Assembly: GCA_035699685.1 (NCBI GenBank)
Contig: DASSPL010000438.1
Location: 1-36,140 of the forward strand
Direction of reading: 5' to 3'
Length of the DNA stretch: 36,140 nucleotides
Origin: Burkholderiales bacterium
GTDB lineage: Bacteria > Pseudomonadota > Gammaproteobacteria > Burkholderiales > SG8-39
A program made the translations under genes and the position numbers. Under the pieces are notes generated by a model that saw nothing but the letters and a program-made list of their open reading frames with translations, was not told the origin of the DNA and ran no database searches. Shown here one piece after another: positions 5,417-23,270 of this stretch. Within the stretch, counting starts at the first letter, position 1, and every line of letters begins with the position of its first letter.

Positions 5417-7421
<2,005 letters not shown>

Positions 7422-8891: not shown

Positions 8892-9077
8892 ATGTGGAAG
8901 ATCAAAGTAGCGGAGACGCACGTGGGCGTGCTGCGCCAGCATCTGACAGACATCGGCGAGTACACGAGCGATGGCAACACGTCGGGTTACTGGATCTACG
9001 GCACCGAGTCACCGCGCGTCTTCTCGCGCTGGTGCCGGGCGTATGAAGAAGCCGGCGCGCCTTACACCGTACTCTGA
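8892..9077 (+). CDS. Small hypothetical protein (61 aa)
   Basis: ATG is preceded by AAGGA 6 nt upstream. This frame shows GC3 bias, unlike the overlapping 8825 frame. A hairpin terminator follows directly. I recognise no family. Confidence 0.4.
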   Translation: MWKIKVAETHVGVLRQHLTDIGEYTSDGNTSGYWIYGTESPRVFSRWCRAYEEAGAPYTVL

Positions 9078-9080
9078 CTA

Positions 9081-9109
9081 GAAAGGCCCAGCACCCGCTG
9101 GGCCTTTCT
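9081..9109. terminator. Bidirectional intrinsic terminator between the 61-aa ORF and the cpxP-like gene
   Basis: GAAAGGCCCAGC-ACCC-GCTGGGCCTTTC forms a 12-bp stem. It is flanked by T-rich sequence on the + side (TTTCTGCTTT) and by A-rich/T-rich sequence on the complement. Confidence 0.65.
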
Positions 9110-9113
9110 GCTT

Positions 9114-9596
9114 TCAGCCGCGGTGGCGCGGGCCGTGCCCGCGGCGCGGCTCGCGCAGCTTGTCGAACTGGGCGCGCTGCTCCGGCGTCAGCACGCTGCG
9201 AACGCGGTTATGCGTCTGCGCGTGCATCACGGCGAGGTCGGACATCGCCTTAGCCTGCGCATCCGCGGCGCGGCGCACCGCCGCCTCGTCGAGGCGATCG
9301 GCCGAGGCAAGCTTGTGCAGCTCCTCGCGCGCCGCGCGCACCTTCTTCATCTGCTCGCGGAAAGCCGGCGTCTGCTCGTGCCGGATCTTGAAGATCTGGT
9401 CCTGCTGCGCGTCGGTGAGGTTCAGCTGCCGGTACATGCCGCGCATGCCGTGGCCCTGGTGACCGTGGCCGTCCATGGACATGCGATGCGCCCCCGGGCG
9501 CTCGGCCGGGCCGGACGCCGGCTGGGCCTGGGCAAGCGATGCGACGCCGAGGGCCATGCTGCTGGCGAGGAGGAAGCGGGTGATCGAGACTTTCAT
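9114..9596 (-). CDS. cpxP: Periplasmic Spy/CpxP/ZraP-family protein (LTXXQ motifs)
   Basis: I moved the start to ATG at 9596, giving 160 aa (the ORF-track extension is antisense to cpxR). It has signal peptide MKVSITRFLLASSMALGVASLAQA and two LTXXQ motifs (LNLTDAQQ, LTPEQRAQ). A His/Met-rich stretch MSMDGHGHQGHGMRGM and a C-terminal RRGHGPRHRG are also present. It is divergent from a cpxRA-like pair. Confidence 0.8.
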   Translation of the reverse strand: MKVSITRFLLASSMALGVASLAQAQPASGPAERPGAHRMSMDGHGHQGHGMRGMYRQLNLTDAQQDQIFKIRHEQTPAFREQMKKVRAAREELHKLASADRLDEAAVRRAADAQAKAMSDLAVMHAQTHNRVRSVLTPEQRAQFDKLREPRRGHGPRHRG

Positions 9597-15774: not shown

Positions 15775-16281
15775 TCAGCAGTGCTTGTTGTGGCCTTTCG
15801 CCCAGCCCTTGCCCTTGTTGTGCTTCTTGCCGCAGTCGTGCGCGACGGCTTGCACCGAACCGCCTTGCGCGGGCTGCGCCGCGACCGTCTGCACGGGCTT
15901 GCCCTGTTGCTTGTTGCCGCCGGCGAGCTCGCGGCCGATCACCGCGCCGGCCGCACCGCCGACGCCGGCGCCGACGATGCCGCCCTTGTCGCCGCCGACC
16001 TGCTGGCCGATTGCCGCACCGGCTGCGCCGCCTGCCGCGCCGCCGACGATCGCGCCGCCCTGGCCCGGGCCGCGCGTGCCGACCGCGGCACCGGCCGCGC
16101 CGCCGACTGCGCCGCCCACCACGCCACCGGTCTTGCCGCCTGCCTTCTGGCCTACTGCGGCTCCCGCCGCGCCGCCGACGCCGCCGCCGATCGCCGTGCC
16201 GACGTTGCTGTCGGCCCACGCCAGCGCCGTGGAAGCGGAGAGAATGACGCCAAGAACAATTCGCTTTGTTTCACTTTTCAT
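15775..16281 (-). CDS. Secreted glycine-zipper repeat protein with Cys-bracketed His/Lys tail
   Basis: I moved the start to ATG at 16281, which has GGAGG 7 nt upstream, giving 168 aa. The signal peptide is MKSETKRIVLGVILSASTALAWA. There are four Gly/Ala-rich repeats of the GGxxGGAAGAAxG type. The C terminus is HDCGKKHNKGKGWAKGHNKHC. Confidence 0.75.
   Translation of the reverse strand: MKSETKRIVLGVILSASTALAWADSNVGTAIGGGVGGAAGAAVGQKAGGKTGGVVGGAVGGAAGAAVGTRGPGQGGAIVGGAAGGAAGAAIGQQVGGDKGGIVGAGVGGAAGAVIGRELAGGNKQQGKPVQTVAAQPAQGGSVQAVAHDCGKKHNKGKGWAKGHNKHC
15907..16194 (-). repeat. Four tandem ~23-25-codon glycine-zipper units (coding repeat)
   Basis: The units are AIGGGVGGAAGAAVGQKAGGKTGG, VVGGAVGGAAGAAVGTRGPGQGG, AIVGGAAGGAAGAAIGQQVGGDKGG and IVGAGVGGAAGAVIGRELAGG. 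Confidence 0.8.
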
Positions 16282-16329
16282 GGAATGCCTCCCGAGCCCG
16301 GATAGTACTCTGGCGAACCTCGACCGGCC

Positions 16330-17621: not shown

Positions 17622-19943
17622 TTGGCGCTAAGGCGGTATCAAGTGGGCGATATCACAAGGCGCCTCGCGGCGGTTGCGTTTGCGGACGTGGCGGGCTGGT
17701 CGCGTCTCATCGAGAAAAGCGACGTAGGCACGCTCCGCGCGTGGAAGGCCGTGCGCGCGGACCTGATCGAACCGAGGCTGCAGGACCACGGCGGGCGCCT
17801 TCTCGAGATCGCCGGCGACGCGGTGCTGGTCGAGTTCCCCAGCGCCGTGGATGCCGTCAAGTGGGCGATCGACGTGCAGCACGGCCTGCGCACCGCGCAG
17901 GAGGCGCACGAGCTCAGCATGCGCATCGGCATCAACGTCGAGGACGTGATCGTCGATGACGGCAAGCTGGTCGGCACCGGCATCAACGTCGCCGCGCGGA
18001 TCCAGCAGCTCGCCGCGCCGGGCGAGATCATCGTGACGGCGGCGGTGCGCGATTATTCCGCCGACCGGCTGGACGCGAGCTTCGTCGACCTCGGCTCGCA
18101 GAAGCTGCGCAATATCAGCCGCCGCGTCCACCTGTACCGTATCGATGTCGGGCGTGCGCGTTCCCGGGACCCGCGAAACGTGGCGCCTCTGCACCCGGAG
18201 CCGGTCGTCCTCGACAGCCAGGAAGAGCGCACCATCCGGGCGGTGCTGCACGTCCAGGTCGCCGATCCGGCCAGCGAGCGCAGCGAAGAAGAATCGATCG
18301 CGCGCTGGCGCGGCCTCGTCGACCGCGTCGCGAACAGCGTCCTGCCGTCGCACGGCGGCCGGCTGCTCAGGAGCCTGGGCGGCGACATGCTGCTCGATTT
18401 CCCCCACGCGCCCGTGGCGCTGAAGGCGGCCTTCGACATCCAGCGCCTCTGCGGCGCGCTGGACCAGCGCATCCTGGTATCGATGGGCATGCAGGTCGGC
18501 GAGCTCATCGCCGACGACCACGGCATTTACGGACGCGACCTCAATCTCGCCGCCGGCCTGACCGAGGTCGCGGGACCCGGTGAAATCGTGGTCTCCGCCG
18601 GCGCGCGCGACCAGCTCACGCCGATGCTCGATGCCGACGTCGAGGACCTGGGCGAATGCTATGTGGGCAGCCTCAAGCAGCCGATCCGGGCTTATCGGGT
18701 CGGACCGCCCGGCCCGCGTCCCGTGGTCGACCCGGCGGCGGCTGTGGAGCTCCGCCCGACGATCGCCGTGGTGCCCTTCGCCGCCCGCACCACCGAAAAG
18801 GAACATCAGGTCATCGGCGAAGTGCTCGCCGACGAAGTGATCTCGGCGTTGTCGCGCAGCGCCGACGTGAACGTCATTTCGCGCCTGTCGACCACGGCCT
18901 TCCGCGGCAGGAACGCGAGCGCGACCGAGGTCGGCCAGCACCTGAACGCCTCCTACGTCCTCTCGGGAGGCTATCGGGTCTCGCGCTCGCACCTTTCGGT
19001 GGTGGCCGAGGTCGCGGACGCGAGCAGCGGCCACATCATCTGGTCCGACGACCTCGCCGGTGATGTCAAGGGGATTATTACCGGCAAGGACGACCTAATA
19101 GATCGCATCGTCACCGCGGCGAGCGCCGCCATAATGGCCCGCGAGTTACAACGTGCTCAATCCCAGGCCCTGCCGACACTCCAGAGCTACACGCTGCTGA
19201 TGGCAGCGATAACCCTCATGCATCGCCTGTCGCCGTCGAGCTTTGATCGCGCGCACGACATGCTCGAGACCCTGTGCGAGCGCGCGCCACGGCAGGCGAT
19301 TCCAAGCGCGTGGCTCGGCAAGTGGCACGTGCTGCGCGTCGAGCAGGGCTGGAGCGACGACATCAACCGCGACGCGCGCATGGCGCTCGATTGCACCCGG
19401 CGCGCGCTCGACGTCGACCCGCATTGCTCGCTCGCGCTGTCGGTGGACGGCTTCATCCACACCAACCTCCTGCGCAAGCTCGACGTCGGCCTGCAGCGCT
19501 ACGACCTGGCGATCCAGGTCAACCCGAACGATTCGCTCGCCTGGCTGCTGAAGGGCATGCTGCATGCCTTCCGCGGCGAAGGCAAACACGCCGTGCGCGG
19601 GACGCAGCGCGCGCTGCGCCTCTCCCCGCTCGATCCGCATCGTTACTTCTACGATTCGCTCGCCGCCTCCGCGGCCCTGTCGGCGGCCGATTACAAGGGA
19701 GCGATCGACCTCGCGCGCCGTTCGCTGCGTGCCAATCGCACCCATACGTCCACCCTGCGGGTCATGGCGATCGCGCAGTGGCAGCTCGGCCGGCACAAGG
19801 AGGCGCGCGACACCGTGCACGACCTGATGACGCTGCAGCCGTCGCTCACGGTCAGCCGCTGGCTCGAGCGCTCGCCGAGCAGCGAATACGAGATAGGCAA
19901 GCTTTGCGCGCGTTCGCTGCAGGAGGCCGGCGTGCCGCGCTGA
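17622..19943 (+). CDS. Tandem class III adenylate/guanylate cyclase-domain protein with a central TolB-N-like module and C-terminal TPR region
   Basis: 773 aa. CHD1 covers ~aa 15-175 (VAFADVAGWS, EIAGDAVLVEF, GTGINVAARI). CHD2 covers ~aa 205-360 and is degenerate (VQVADPAS, SLGGDMLLDF, RDLNLAAGL). It continues with IAVVPFAAR...VISRLST...YVLSGGY and then TPR-like helical repeats to the C terminus. The start is TTG 17622, or GTG 17643 as an alternative. Confidence 0.85.
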   Translation: MALRRYQVGDITRRLAAVAFADVAGWSRLIEKSDVGTLRAWKAVRADLIEPRLQDHGGRLLEIAGDAVLVEFPSAVDAVKWAIDVQHGLRTAQEAHELSMRIGINVEDVIVDDGKLVGTGINVAARIQQLAAPGEIIVTAAVRDYSADRLDASFVDLGSQKLRNISRRVHLYRIDVGRARSRDPRNVAPLHPEPVVLDSQEERTIRAVLHVQVADPASERSEEESIARWRGLVDRVANSVLPSHGGRLLRSLGGDMLLDFPHAPVALKAAFDIQRLCGALDQRILVSMGMQVGELIADDHGIYGRDLNLAAGLTEVAGPGEIVVSAGARDQLTPMLDADVEDLGECYVGSLKQPIRAYRVGPPGPRPVVDPAAAVELRPTIAVVPFAARTTEKEHQVIGEVLADEVISALSRSADVNVISRLSTTAFRGRNASATEVGQHLNASYVLSGGYRVSRSHLSVVAEVADASSGHIIWSDDLAGDVKGIITGKDDLIDRIVTAASAAIMARELQRAQSQALPTLQSYTLLMAAITLMHRLSPSSFDRAHDMLETLCERAPRQAIPSAWLGKWHVLRVEQGWSDDINRDARMALDCTRRALDVDPHCSLALSVDGFIHTNLLRKLDVGLQRYDLAIQVNPNDSLAWLLKGMLHAFRGEGKHAVRGTQRALRLSPLDPHRYFYDSLAASAALSAADYKGAIDLARRSLRANRTHTSTLRVMAIAQWQLGRHKEARDTVHDLMTLQPSLTVSRWLERSPSSEYEIGKLCARSLQEAGVPR

Positions 19944-19971
19944 TCAACGGGTTCATAACCGAGGGGGAGCA

Positions 19972-21171
19972 ATGAGTGTCGAGGGGGGCTTCGGCGGGTT
20001 CGGAGGATTTGGCGGGTTCGGTGGGTTCGGTGGCTTCGGCGGGTTCGGCGGATTTGGCGGCTTCGGCGGCTTCGGCGGATTTGGCGGCTTCGGAGGGTTT
20101 GGCGGCTTCGGCCCCCAGCCCGGCTACGCACCCGATGCGCTGATCACCCACCGCGACGGCATCGTCGGGGGCTGGGTGCCACCGACGCACGATGGCGTAC
20201 CGGTGGCGCTCAAGCAGGAGCACGACGATCCGCTCGCCAACCTCGCCCGCTGGGAGCCTTGGGTACGAGCAGCGGCGCTGGATTTCGAAGTGGTGTCGCA
20301 CCTGCATTTCGGCGCCGGGCAGGACGAATCGAAGACCTACAACGGCTACACCCTCTGGCACCTGGATCGAACCGCGATTCCGGGAACCGTCACGCCACGG
20401 CCTATCGCGCGCATGGTCCGGCCGCCGGACCTGTCGGCCGGCAACGATTTCTGGATCAAGCAGCTCGAGATCGTCGCGAACTACGCCGATCTGCGCGAAG
20501 ACCGGGCGAGCGAGGTGCTGACGCAGGTCACCCCGCCCATCGTCTACTGGGCGTCGGTGATGAACCTGCAGCCGCACACCAAGAAGTACACGCTCGAGCT
20601 TCTGGGCCTCGCCTTGCGCTTCGCCACGTTCGCGGAGATGCGCTTCAAGCACGCCCTCGCCGTGCGCAGGCCGGCCGAGATGTCGGCGCAGATCCAGCCG
20701 ATGATCGGCACCCCGGGCCATGGCGCGCTTCCCAGCGGGCACGCCACCGAGGCGCACATCGTCGCGTATGTGCTGTGGAACCTCGCGTCGGCCGCGGACA
20801 GCACGAAGAAGAAGAACAATGTGTGGCTGGAGCAGCTCATGCGCCAGGCTTCGCGCATTGCAGTGAATCGCACGGTCGCCGGCGTGCACTTCCCGGTCGA
20901 CAGCTCGGCGGGGCAGCTCCTGGGCCTGACGCTCGGCGAGTACCTGCTGCACCTTTGCGGCGTCGGCAGCAAGTACAAGGCATGGGAGTTCCTCGGCCCG
21001 AAGTTCACCGCCACGGACGATTTCGACTGGCGCGCGCAGTACGACACGGCGATGCCCAGTCCCGCGCGCAAGGCCACGGCCTTCGCCGTCGAAATCCCGG
21101 GTAATCAGACGGCCACCAAGTCTGTGATGCTCGAATGGCTGTGGGACCAGGCGAAGAAGGAGTGGCCGTGA
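19972..21171 (+). CDS. (GGF)x14-repeat protein with a PAP2 acid phosphatase / vanadium-haloperoxidase-like catalytic domain; no signal peptide or TM segment
   Basis: 399 aa, ATG after GAGGGGGAG. After MSVE come 14 perfect GGF triplets. The PAP2 superfamily motifs appear in order: K226-HALAVR-R233-P234 (KX6RP), P254-S-G-H257 (PSGH) and R300-TVAGV-H306-FPV-D310 (RX3GXHX3D). Confidence 0.75.
   Translation: MSVEGGFGGFGGFGGFGGFGGFGGFGGFGGFGGFGGFGGFGGFGGFGPQPGYAPDALITHRDGIVGGWVPPTHDGVPVALKQEHDDPLANLARWEPWVRAAALDFEVVSHLHFGAGQDESKTYNGYTLWHLDRTAIPGTVTPRPIARMVRPPDLSAGNDFWIKQLEIVANYADLREDRASEVLTQVTPPIVYWASVMNLQPHTKKYTLELLGLALRFATFAEMRFKHALAVRRPAEMSAQIQPMIGTPGHGALPSGHATEAHIVAYVLWNLASAADSTKKKNNVWLEQLMRQASRIAVNRTVAGVHFPVDSSAGQLLGLTLGEYLLHLCGVGSKYKAWEFLGPKFTATDDFDWRAQYDTAMPSPARKATAFAVEIPGNQTATKSVMLEWLWDQAKKEWP
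19984..20109 (+). repeat. 14 tandem 9-nt units encoding Gly-Gly-Phe (in-frame coding microsatellite-like array)
   Basis: I read it unit by unit. All 14 units translate to GGF. The units differ only at synonymous third positions (ggc/ggg/gga/ggt; ttc/ttt). A 23-nt stretch is identical at 20044-20066 and 20071-20093, a 27-nt offset. Confidence 0.95.
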
Positions 21172-23270
21172 AGGGCGGGTGGTCGAAATCCAAGCCGCCG
21201 CGGCGCGACCGCAAGCTGTTCGACCCCTACTACGACTGGGCCGTCAGCACGGGCTTCGCCTACTACGGCAAGCCCGACTGGGTCCCGGTGATCATCGAGC
21301 TCGAGAAAGACGTGCCGGCCTTTCTCGAGCGGGTCCGCACGCAGCGCTGGGGCAGCGCGATGCGCATCCCGAAGATCTACAGGAATCCGCCCAGACGGCT
21401 GAAGAAGAAGCTCAAGTTCCTCACGGCGATGGTGGAACGCGCCCGCCTGCCCGAGCTGCTCGACGCCGGCGCGGTAAACATCGACATCAAGCGCATGGAG
21501 ATCGGGCGCATGGTCGATGTGCCCAGCGGCCCGCACCTTACGCAGGAGGGAACCGGGTGGGGAGACCTGAACCTCGAGCTGCCCAACCCGCCCTTTCCGG
21601 CCGGCACGGTGCTGATCGGCGTGATCGACGACAGCATCGCCTTCGCCCACGAGCGCTTCAGGACCGGGACGAGCACGCGGATCTGGTATTTCTGGGATCA
21701 GCAAGTGCCTTCCGATGATTCGGGGCGATGGGACTACGGGCGTGAGATCCGCAAGGAGACGATGCCTGACGGCATCGACGATCTCCTCGGCCGGTGCAAG
21801 CATGGCGAGGTCATCGACGAGGACGAGGTTTACCGCAAGGCGGGACACCTCAATTTCGCCGACAGCGGCCACAAGCCGCTCGCGCTGCGCGGCTCGCATG
21901 GCACGCACGTCGCCGACCTCGCGTGCAACCCGCCGGTCGGCGAGGGGCCGATCGTCGCGGTGCAGCTGCCGATCGCCACGACCGAGGACACCTCGGGTGC
22001 GACATTGAAGCCGCAGGCCTTCGATGCCCTGCTCTACATGCTCGATTGCGCCGACCAGCACAGCGGCAAGGACCCGCTGCCGCTCGTCGTCAACCTGAGC
22101 TACGGCATGTACGCCGGTCCGCACGATGGCCAGGGGCTTCTCGAGCAGGCCATCGACCACCTGCTCGATTCATGCAACACCGGCTCCAAGACGCCGGTTC
22201 TGCAGGTCGTGCTGCCGGCCGGCAACAGCCACCTGCTGCGCTGCCATGCCGCCTTCTCGCTCGACGCCAAGGCGAAGGCGCCGGTGCCGGAAGAAGAGGA
22301 TCCGTCGATCCGGCTACTGCACTGGCGAGTGCTGCCGGATGACCGCACCGAGAGCTTCCTCGAGATCTGGTATCCGGAAAACCGTGCCAATGACCTCGCG
22401 GCGAGCGTGACGGCGCCGACCGGTCTCGCCACCGGCTGGTTCGATCTCAACACCAGTTTCGAGTGGCAAGACGCAGCCGGACGCGTCATGGGCCAGATCC
22501 AGTTCTATCCTCCACCCCTCGGCAGCAAGCGCGGCGTCATCCGCATCGCGCTCGCACCGACGGCAGGACGGGGCGGGTCCCTGACCGGAGTTCCATCGGG
22601 AATCTGGCAGGTGCGGGTCGAAAACCGCGGGGCGAGCGCGATCGCCGACATCGACGCATGGATCCAGCGCGACGATACGGTGCACGGCTATCGGCGTGGC
22701 GCGAGGCAGTCCTATTTCGACGATCCGGAGTACGCCCGATTCGACCCGGGTGGCCGTCCCATCGAGGACGACAACCACCTCGCTACGAAGGACAGCTACG
22801 TCAAGCGTCAAGGCACTTTCAATGCCATCTCCTCGGGTACGAAAAGCATCGTCGCATCAGGGTTGATCCGGCAGAACTGGAAACCGAGCCCATACTCGGC
22901 TTCCGGCCCCCTATACCCGCCCGGCCGCGATGTGCCCAACAAGAAGGGGCCCGAGGTGATGGCCGGCTCGGATGACAGTCCTTCCCACAACGGCATCCTG
23001 GCAGCCGGTTCGCGCAGCGGGTCGTGCGTGGCCATGCGCGGCACGAGCGTCGCCGCACCCCAGGTGGCGCGGCTCGTAGCGCAGAACATCGCGGGCGGAG
23101 GAAAGGGCGACCGCTTCGCCGCGGCGGATTTTCCCAAGGCGGTGGTGGCTCATCCCGACTACACCGAAAAGGCGCCGCCCCCGGGCGCGGCGGCAGCGCC
23201 GTCTCTGGAACGCGGCGGCCTTGGGCGCGTCGATTACCAGCCGCCGCGCAAGCCGCGCTTCGAGCGCTAG
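21168..23270 (+). CDS. S8 (subtilisin-like) serine peptidase, apparently cytoplasmic, with large insertions
   Basis: GTG 21168 lies 5 nt after AAGGAG (21157-21162) and overlaps the upstream TGA (GTGA). The ORF-track ATG 21135 is an alternative. The catalytic motifs are GVIDDSIAF (Asp), GSHGTHVADLA (His), LPAGNSH (oxyanion Asn) and RGTSVAAPQVA (Ser). There is no N-terminal signal peptide. Confidence 0.88.
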   Translation: MKGGWSKSKPPRRDRKLFDPYYDWAVSTGFAYYGKPDWVPVIIELEKDVPAFLERVRTQRWGSAMRIPKIYRNPPRRLKKKLKFLTAMVERARLPELLDAGAVNIDIKRMEIGRMVDVPSGPHLTQEGTGWGDLNLELPNPPFPAGTVLIGVIDDSIAFAHERFRTGTSTRIWYFWDQQVPSDDSGRWDYGREIRKETMPDGIDDLLGRCKHGEVIDEDEVYRKAGHLNFADSGHKPLALRGSHGTHVADLACNPPVGEGPIVAVQLPIATTEDTSGATLKPQAFDALLYMLDCADQHSGKDPLPLVVNLSYGMYAGPHDGQGLLEQAIDHLLDSCNTGSKTPVLQVVLPAGNSHLLRCHAAFSLDAKAKAPVPEEEDPSIRLLHWRVLPDDRTESFLEIWYPENRANDLAASVTAPTGLATGWFDLNTSFEWQDAAGRVMGQIQFYPPPLGSKRGVIRIALAPTAGRGGSLTGVPSGIWQVRVENRGASAIADIDAWIQRDDTVHGYRRGARQSYFDDPEYARFDPGGRPIEDDNHLATKDSYVKRQGTFNAISSGTKSIVASGLIRQNWKPSPYSASGPLYPPGRDVPNKKGPEVMAGSDDSPSHNGILAAGSRSGSCVAMRGTSVAAPQVARLVAQNIAGGGKGDRFAAADFPKAVVAHPDYTEKAPPPGAAAAPSLERGGLGRVDYQPPRKPRFER

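Follow-up and report, generated by a model that had tools for sequence, protein, structure and literature searches.

What does a perfect run of one tripeptide do at the N terminus of a bacterial enzyme? The question is raised by a stretch of 36,140 nucleotides (hereafter the window) from a Burkholderiales bacterium of the SG8-39 lineage (GenBank assembly GCA_035699685.1, contig DASSPL010000438.1), in which a gene on the plus strand (19972–21171) encodes a protein of 399 amino acids. The protein begins with MSVE, which is followed by exactly 14 Gly–Gly–Phe (GGF) units at 19984–20109, by GPQPGY, and by a globular domain of the PAP2 phosphatase type. Its neighbors encode a sensor with C-terminal tetratricopeptide repeats (TPRs) and an S8 subtilase. 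The array is probably a multicopy cognate ligand of the neighboring TPR sensor, and the S8 protease would most likely cut the disordered N-terminal region that carries it.

The GGF array in the window

An earlier note on this DNA had described 14 uninterrupted GGF units after MSVE that differ only synonymously, and rereading of the open reading frame (ORF) and its translation confirmed both points. The 14 units comprise eight DNA variants, and all 17 differences from the DNA consensus unit are synonymous. A random single-base change in this array has a 26% chance of being synonymous, which gives P ~1e-10 for 17 of 17. A 23-nt block is identical at 20044–20066 and 20071–20093, and the score of Tandem Repeats Finder (TRF) is higher for a 27-nt period than for a 9-nt period. 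Part of the array thus derives from a three-unit duplication, as the note had postulated from the two blocks 27 nt apart.

The array must be translated, because a Shine–Dalgarno sequence (GAGGGGGAG) lies near the ATG and the stop codon of the upstream sensor gene is located 28 nt 5′ of it. No start codon was found in this ORF between the array and the conserved motif downstream. From the small second residue of the MSVE leader, we infer that the initiator Met is removed.

Conservation of the array in a three-gene cassette

Related loci were collected from a scan of species-representative genomes (80 loci) and from a metagenome scan (80 loci). The species-representative loci belong to Alpha- and Betaproteobacteria, apart from one metagenome-assembled genome (MAG) of Myxococcota. 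The gene order is sensor, PAP2 phosphatase, and S8 protease in every locus with a long enough contig, and no fourth gene is conserved beside this cassette in the about 160 loci. To read the arrays, the translation was extended from each PAP2 match in the upstream direction as far as the in-frame stop. An N-terminal array of 4–18 identical tripeptides (median about 11) is present in all 158 loci whose upstream sequence could be read; 155 arrays were obtained automatically, and the others are an alternating GGQ/GAY array, an (EGV)9 array, and a partial one at a contig edge. The arrays are placed between a short leader and a conserved junction (...SP...ALIxxRDGIVG). At least 35 unit types occur, including GGF, GGV, GGA, GGL, GGI, GGH, GGY, GGM, GGT, GAF, GSL, SSL, SGV, SGH, SGW, SGT, KGH, EGF, EGY, EGV, DAN, NAH, and NGI, as well as NSF on Phaeobacter plasmids. 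When the unit is written as X1-X2-Z, X1 is mostly Gly and then Ser or Ala, and the residue at X2 is tiny throughout: 134 of the 155 arrays have Gly there, 13 have Ala, and 8 have Ser.

The PAP2-domain family comprises 448 clusters at 50% identity (E ≤ 1e-30). Gene callers systematically start its members inside the array, at a GTG that gives VGGVGGV..., or after the array (P0005, P0007, P0065, P0068, and many others). Because of these miscalled starts, the arrays are under-represented in protein databases, where automatic truncation leaves the feature largely invisible. Two database proteins that seemed to lack an array have one in frame on their contigs (L179 and L180).

Several details of the arrays and leaders are recorded here as observations in their own right. 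In Primorskyibacter sedentarius (Rhodobacterales), the array alternates between two units, GGQ and GAY/GTY/GAF, in five hexamers (L053, about 5870–5980). GGA arrays can contain an odd unit, G[LVW][LI] or SLL, which is conserved in a fixed place after the first one to three GGA (L007, L013, L017, L071, L137, L143, L159, L161, L162, and L179), and an odd SGS, NGS, or TGS unit stands in the middle of some GAF arrays (L036, L037, L039, L052, L062, and L063). Once the Met is taken off, as predicted, the leader length is divisible by three in about 58 of about 74 loci, where the array reads X1-X2-Z, a count into which phylogeny was not factored. It is offset by one residue in about 16 of the 74 (read Z-X1-X2), and the third register was never seen. 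Many leaders in this set end in GPE, SPE, or APE.

Across the 155 arrays, 2343 differences from each array's own DNA consensus are synonymous and 9 are non-synonymous, the arrays having been delimited for this count as periodic runs, a step that drops interrupted units. The mean pairwise difference between DNA units is ~2 of 9 nt, which is near saturation of the synonymous sites. Within the arrays, Gly codons are used more evenly (1.89 bits) than over the remainder of these genes (1.71 bits; chi-square P = 1.7e-34). This evenness would fit selection against repetitive DNA or a preference for rare codons near the 5′ end. The synonymous scatter and the even Gly codons indicate that the peptide was held perfect while the DNA was kept, or became, non-repetitive; the arrays are striking as perfect peptide repeats in non-repetitive DNA.

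Copy number varies in frame, as the earlier note had anticipated. Fourteen units are present in two further contigs of the window organism (L081 and L082), 13 GGF units with different codons in a syntenic relative, and five, six, or seven NSF units among strains of Phaeobacter piscinae, P. inhibens, and P. gallaeciensis. The length variants are all multiples of 9 nt. The only frame break among the related loci is a 1-nt indel in a nanopore MAG (L079), and it lies after an intact (EGV)9 array.

These results bear on the idea that the repeat does not code for protein or precedes the true start, as a recently slipped DNA repeat or a regulatory element. The frequent calling of homologs with a start downstream of or inside the array would speak for it, but the peptide is conserved while the DNA units are not, length changes keep the frame, the sole frame break follows the array, and the gene in the window offers no later start before the conserved motif. 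This idea can practically be dismissed. On the counts given above, the array is translated, under extreme constraint at the peptide level, and universal in this PAP2 family, so that the maintenance of the peptide claimed in the note for one gene is borne out across about 158 related loci.

The note had also compared the array with cohesive FG/GGF low-complexity sequences, which serve in self-association or condensates. The unit in the window does abound in Phe and Gly, and disorder is predicted for the tail. However, neither Phe nor any other aromatic residue is conserved in the orthologous arrays (for example GGA, GGV, SGT, KGH, DAN, NAH, and SSL), and Phe/Gly cohesion therefore cannot be the conserved function. 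Moreover, cohesive low-complexity regions tolerate substitutions, whereas the arrays are perfect, and the unit covaries with a TPR pocket, as described in the next section. We consider a cohesive domain highly improbable, and the analogy was abandoned.

Covariation of the unit with the TPR domain of the sensor

For each position of the unit, normalized mutual information was calculated with all well-occupied columns in the alignments of the sensor, the PAP2 protein, and the S8 protease. In the first set of loci, the top two of 1421 columns were both located at the C-terminal end of the sensor TPR region. The set was enlarged to 126 non-redundant loci, in which Gly at X1 goes with Phe at residue 611 of the sensor in 125 cases: Phe611 is present in 91 of the 92 loci with Gly at X1 and absent from all 34 with another residue there. 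This is the top column (z = 12.4). When X1 is not Gly, residue 611 is L, N, V, M, I, Q, C, S, or A. Fitch parsimony required 21 steps for X1, 20 for residue 611, and 21 for the joint character, corresponding to about 20 independent co-changes, and a crude hypergeometric estimate for the co-location of the changes is ~1e-28.

Position Z behaves in a similar manner. Val at Z pairs with Ile717 and Ile at Z with Val717 in 28 of 28 loci, and small residues at Z pair with Trp762 (122/126 loci). X2 is tracked by residues 634 and 680, in few clades and with few co-changes. Such changes compensate for size, which is the signature of side chains in contact. The covarying residues form the groups 611/615/616, 676/680/683, 714/717, and 747/758/762, with a spacing of i, i+3/4, and i+7 within four helices. 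With this spacing, the residues of each group line up along a single helix face, and the helices concerned are the first ones of successive TPR repeats. TPR proteins bind peptides on the first-helix faces of successive repeats. No comparable columns were found in the S8 protease or the globular PAP2 domain, which gave moderate signals only for X2, a position that changes in two or three clades.

The pairing rules were fixed beforehand and applied to seven plasmid loci that had not been used in deriving them. The coarse rules were correct in 6 of 7 (R1), 6 of 7 (R2), and 1 of 1 (R3) cases. Roseibium aggregatum, whose unit is SGV, has Leu611, Trp762, and Ile717, exactly as the rules predict. Judged by these paired changes, the array and the TPR domain of the neighboring sensor have evolved together, one residue matched to another, a relation that the earlier note had not considered.

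The sensor

The positions of the cassette features in the window are given in Table 1. In the sensor, a class III cyclase domain is followed by a degenerate second domain of cyclase homology, by a TolB-like region in the middle, and by TPR repeats at the C terminus. The first domain matched Pfam PF00211 (Guanylate_cyc) at residues 17–159 with 30.7 bits (cut-off 21.9), and members of the family scored 25.8–42 bits. The family consensus keeps FxD, GD, and N..AAR, which hold the catalytic Asp, Asp, Asn, and Arg of class III cyclases, and cyclase activity is predicted. Most relatives have a single cyclase domain, and the clade of the window has an extra, apparently competent one at the N terminus. 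In the second domain of the window sensor, AAGL replaces AARL, with Gly in place of the conserved Arg. This arrangement (17622–18700 in the window) suggests a pseudo-heterodimeric tandem cyclase in this clade.

The TPR region matched consensus-TPR structures in a phmmer search (E = 6.6e-21), with TPR chains of PEX5 among the weak Protein Data Bank (PDB) matches, and it has the TPR character on this basis. Individual Pfam TPR matches were below the cut-offs in the window sensor and above them in family members, and Pfam and NCBIfam gave generic TPR matches only for this part. In sensors of Phaeobacter and Parasedimentitalea, an OmpR-type winged helix (Trans_reg_C, 52.7 bits) replaces the cyclase, joined to the same TolB-like and TPR module; examples are L166 (2471–4534; Phaeobacter gallaeciensis pGal_C110) and L173, and the array unit that goes with this sensor form is NSF. 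The replacement of the cyclase by a winged helix indicates that the TPR part is a sensor with exchangeable outputs.

In about 14 of ~160 loci, which belong to several clades and do not include the window, the neighbor of the cassette is a gene for a Crp/Fnr-type cyclic-nucleotide-binding transcription regulator (L001 at 8932–9579 on the minus strand, L077, L048, L080, L046, L099, L118, L026, L043, L023, L133, L117, L042, and L011). These neighbors would fit a cyclic-nucleotide output of the sensor.

Table 1 Features of the cassette in the window
Feature	Position	Strand	Remarks
Sensor gene	17622..19943	+	773 aa (766 aa in the gene call on identical contigs)
TPR region of the sensor	19179..19940	+	Residues 520-773; contains the unit-covarying positions
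Covarying residues, first part	F611 (19452-19454), N615, L616, N634, F676, L680, S683	+	
Covarying residues, second part	V714, I717 (19770-19772), W747, I758, C762 (19905-19907)	+	
Shine-Dalgarno sequence of the PAP2 gene, GAGGGGGAG	19961..19969	+	Read from the sequence; strong; ends 2 nt before the ATG
Leader MSVE	19972..19983	+	SVE without the initiator Met, three residues, in triplet register with the array
(Gly-Gly-Phe)14 homo-tripeptide array	19984..20109	+	Proposed multicopy ligand of the TPR sensor
Stretch directly after the array	20110..20175	+	R61, D62, G63, I64, G66, W68 at least 90% conserved
Globular PAP2 domain, class A acid-phosphatase-like	20224..21171	+	K226, R233-P234, S255-G256-H257, R300, H306, D310 intact
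Csp-like S8 subtilase gene	21168..23270	+	700 aa from GTG 21168; ORF open from ATG 21135; start overlaps the PAP2 stop

The PAP2 phosphatase

The PAP2 domain matched Pfam PF01569 at residues 211–322 with 34.5 bits (cut-off 27.2). All three catalytic motifs (KxxxxxxRP, PSGH, and (S)RxxxxxHxxxD) are present, the third as NRTVAGVHFPVD, in which N replaces S. Among 44 PAP2 sequences, there is no variation at K226, R233, G256, H257, R300, and H306, and conservation is at least 90% at P234, S255, and D310. The AlphaFold2 (AF2) model shows a high predicted local distance difference test score (pLDDT) over most of residues 85–399. Residues 1–83, which include the array and the conserved linear motif, are predicted to be disordered; pLDDT is below 50 at residues 1–52 and 54–65, and the model gives no structure for the tail. 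The best PDB folds in a Foldseek search were 7f17 (E = 5e-6, TM score 0.67), PhoC, and PhoN, which are soluble class A acid phosphatases. By fold and motifs, the array-bearing protein is a soluble PAP2-type phosphatase, and its activity is predicted. The membrane-interacting tail that the earlier note had considered finds no support in these data: inspection by eye showed no hydrophobic segment, the nearest solved structures are those of soluble enzymes, and polar units are common.

The array might alternatively form a structure with a three-residue period, such as polyglycine II or a collagen-like helix or bundle, or serve as a flexible spacer. The tiny residue always found at X2 agrees with such a structure, and Gly-rich GGX repeats occur in PE_PGRS and silk proteins. 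However, proline is absent from the arrays, some units lack Gly (DAN, NAH, and SSL), and AF2 gives no structure for the tail. A spacer needs no perfect units, and neither a structural nor a spacer role predicts covariation of a specific unit with the TPR residues. Both roles are very unlikely on these grounds.

The S8 subtilase

The third gene encodes a subtilase that matched Pfam PF00082 (Peptidase_S8) with 32.2 bits (cut-off 21.8). The catalytic residues D165, H255, and S638 and the oxyanion residue N364 (numbered from 21135) are all present and invariant in 53 sequences. The true start is most likely GTG 21168, as indicated by an AAGGAG Shine–Dalgarno sequence, a 4-nt overlap with the PAP2 stop (GTGA), and a database protein of 700 amino acids (P0121), which is 100% identical over its whole length. 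The AF2 model (pLDDT 83) most closely resembled CspB (4i0w; E = 1.6e-20, TM score 0.75) in the Foldseek search, followed by CspC and CspA, and profile matches to Csp proteins reached E = 2e-22. The score with the NCBIfam CspBA model was 32.7 against a cut-off of 1250. Much as in the clostridial Csp germination proteases, a prodomain-like N-terminal region appears to be combined with a large beta-rich insert. Neither the 50 listed PDB fold matches nor the profile matches of this protein included a tripeptidyl-peptidase II (TPP II) entry, and no mimic of the array unit was seen in the linker of the prodomain. A tripeptidyl-peptidase had been tried as the main model, given that family S8 includes TPP II and that most leaders are in triplet register, and was rejected in view of the Csp-like fold, the 16 loci with arrays out of register, and the lack of an S8 column that tracks the unit.

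Elsewhere in the window and unrelated to the cassette, a Gly/Ala-rich, glycine-zipper-like small protein is encoded on the minus strand (15775–16300) upstream of an MFS transporter gene. TRF found a 72-nt tandem repeat of 2.8 copies (15914–16116) in this gene, which is thus a further repetitive coding region of the window that is rich in Gly.

Proposed mechanism and alternatives

Here, we propose a mechanism for the cassette on the basis of comparative sequence analysis. The array, as the N-terminal tail of the PAP2 phosphatase with the unit X1-X2-Z, would be the cognate peptide of the adjacent TPR sensor. The sensor would act as a one-component regulator with a nucleotide cyclase as its output here and, in Phaeobacter, a DNA-binding domain of the winged-helix type. 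Each unit would be seated against a single helical face in successive TPR repeats; X1 would be read by residue 611, X2 by residues 634 and 680, and Z by residues 683, 714, 717, 747, 758, and 762. The identical copies may provide multivalent binding or binding at a high local concentration, and the intact array might bring cyclase domains together, or its fragments might bind. Cleavage of the disordered N-terminal region by the Csp-type subtilase would release, fragment, or remove the ligand and thereby switch the output of the sensor. The ALIxxRDGIVGxW motif is a candidate cleavage site or docking element.

Several points weigh against this proposal. The role of the protease is drawn only from adjacency, translational coupling, and fold, and an intracellular lock-and-key pair does not account for at least 35 unit types. 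The fine Z rules (R4 and R5), which tell F, L, and H apart, were right in only 1 of 5 out-of-sample cases, and a Bosea locus from a divergent subfamily breaks both coarse rules. These failures indicate that the Z code is degenerate or clade-specific. In addition, the 3′ end of the sensor gene and the array are 30–450 nt apart, so linkage adds to the raw correlation. Linkage does not account for the site-specific, size-compensating pattern, which reaches about 500 nt upstream.

In a variant of the proposal, the cassette would be a peptide-signaling system that works like a polyprotein. The S8 protease would cut the array into many copies of a free tripeptide, a signal that is possibly exported and shared between cells and that the TPR sensor would read to control transcription or the synthesis of cyclic nucleotides; the 35 or more unit types would then be specificity classes, or "pherotypes," and the cassette a Gram-negative counterpart of the RRNPP systems discussed below. 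We hold this variant to be rather unlikely.

Another explanation makes the array a protease substrate only, which the S8 enzyme chops into tripeptides or uses as a degron or timer, and which the TPR protein does not read. Such a role would agree with the S8 gene being always adjacent and its start overlapping the PAP2 stop, and with the leaders that have a multiple of three residues after Met removal (about 58 of 74). Kexin-type S8 enzymes process multicopy precursors. On the other hand, the S8 fold is Csp-like, of a limited-processing type, and the next best matches are not TPP II. X1 and Z are tracked by no column of the S8 alignment, nothing in the prodomain linker imitates the unit, and about 16 loci are out of register. 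Above all, the very strong covariation with the TPR domain would be left unexplained. A pure substrate role is thus quite unlikely. The array may still serve as a substrate or degron of the S8 protease, as the earlier note had suggested, but it is the TPR domain to which the covariation points.

If the proposed recognition of the array by the sensor holds, the cassettes contain a code of natural origin, and a readable one, by which a TPR domain recognizes a tripeptide. They would offer dozens of orthogonal receptor–ligand pairs validated by evolution, which could be used for engineered peptide-binding repeat proteins and orthogonal signaling parts. The cassette would be an uncharacterized signaling module, in which a protease and a phosphatase are combined with a cyclic-nucleotide or transcriptional output. 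Its hosts are hundreds of species of soil, plant-associated, and marine Proteobacteria, for example Bradyrhizobium, Rhizobium, Microvirga, Paraburkholderia, Caballeronia, and Phaeobacter and other genera of the Roseobacter group.

Comparison with known systems

Pfam, NCBIfam, and PADLOC contain no model for the array-bearing family or the cassette, and full-text literature searches found no description of either the cassette or the array; no characterized counterpart was found, in line with the remark in the earlier note. Since the defining set of features of none of the known families compared below was found, together with the lack of a database model and of a literature description, we rate the cassette as a new kind of system. 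Two other assignments were tried and rejected. For anti-phage defense, PADLOC gave only marginal matches (PycC, E = 1.6e-4; IetS, E = 6.7e-3) and none for the PAP2 protein. For systems making peptides that are synthesized by ribosomes and modified after translation (RiPPs), scores with the NCBIfam models "peptide modification system cyclase" and "TOMM kinase/cyclase" fell far short of the cut-offs, and literature searches on RiPPs gave no relevant result.

Among repetitive proteins, the GGA/GGN repeats of mycobacterial PE_PGRS proteins, the Gly-Ala repeat of EBNA1, the GGX repeats of spider silk, and the (AAT)n repeats of fish antifreeze glycoproteins (AFGPs) share the three-residue periodicity and glycine richness of the arrays, and GGA itself is shared with PE_PGRS. 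Those repeats are imperfect and have structural or immune-evasion roles, whereas many units of the present arrays are not Gly-rich. We know of no PE_PGRS, EBNA1, silk, or AFGP repeat that is matched to a co-evolving TPR pocket. A collagen-like triple helix is not indicated, as the arrays lack Pro and some units lack Gly (DAN, NAH, SSL, and NSF). The FG repeats of nucleoporins likewise combine Phe and Gly in a disordered tract, a likeness confined to the window; the arrays differ from an FG domain in that Phe is not conserved in the orthologs, hydrophilic spacers are lacking, and the units are perfect.

The closest relatives of the S8 protease by fold and profile are clostridial CspB, CspA, and CspC, whose prodomain-like region and inserted beta-rich domain seem to recur in it. 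CspB acts by limited proteolysis and thereby activates pro-SleC, a cortex hydrolase. The S8 protease shares only 13–19% identity with the Csp proteins, its hosts are non-spore-forming proteobacteria, and its partner is a PAP2 protein with a repeat tail. Tandem identical units and a subtilase-family protease are also combined in the precursors of alpha-factor (with Kex2), thyrotropin-releasing hormone (TRH), and FMRFamide and in fungal Kex2-processed repeats. The units of those precursors are longer, spaced by dibasic sites, and secreted, whereas the units here abut one another and are fused to a phosphatase, and their cleavage is a proposal.

With regard to the proposed recognition, the PEX5 receptor for the peroxisomal signal PTS1 (SKL) and the Hop and CHIP receptors for EEVD also read a peptide of three to five residues on the concave helix-A face of several TPR repeats. 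Their ligands are single C-terminal tags on many client proteins. The cassette has one partner, a tandem array that is internal or N-terminal, and a code that varies between species.

The RRNPP systems (Rap/Phr, NprR/NprX, PlcR/PapR, PrgX, and AimR/AimP) place an intracellular TPR-type receptor adjacent to a peptide gene in Firmicutes and their phages (PMC10075063). A TPR receptor beside the gene for its putative cognate peptide and co-diversified specificity types are found in the cassette as well, and the RRNPP peptide is matured by a protease. The export step of RRNPP was not recognized, given an N terminus (MSVEGGF...) that is not signal-peptide-like and no transporter among the three conserved genes. 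Unlike RRNPP, the cassette occurs mainly in Alpha- and Betaproteobacteria, carries 4–18 tandem tripeptides fused to the N terminus of an enzyme instead of a small secreted propeptide, directs its sensor to a nucleotide cyclase or an OmpR-type winged helix as the output, and includes a dedicated Csp-like subtilase.

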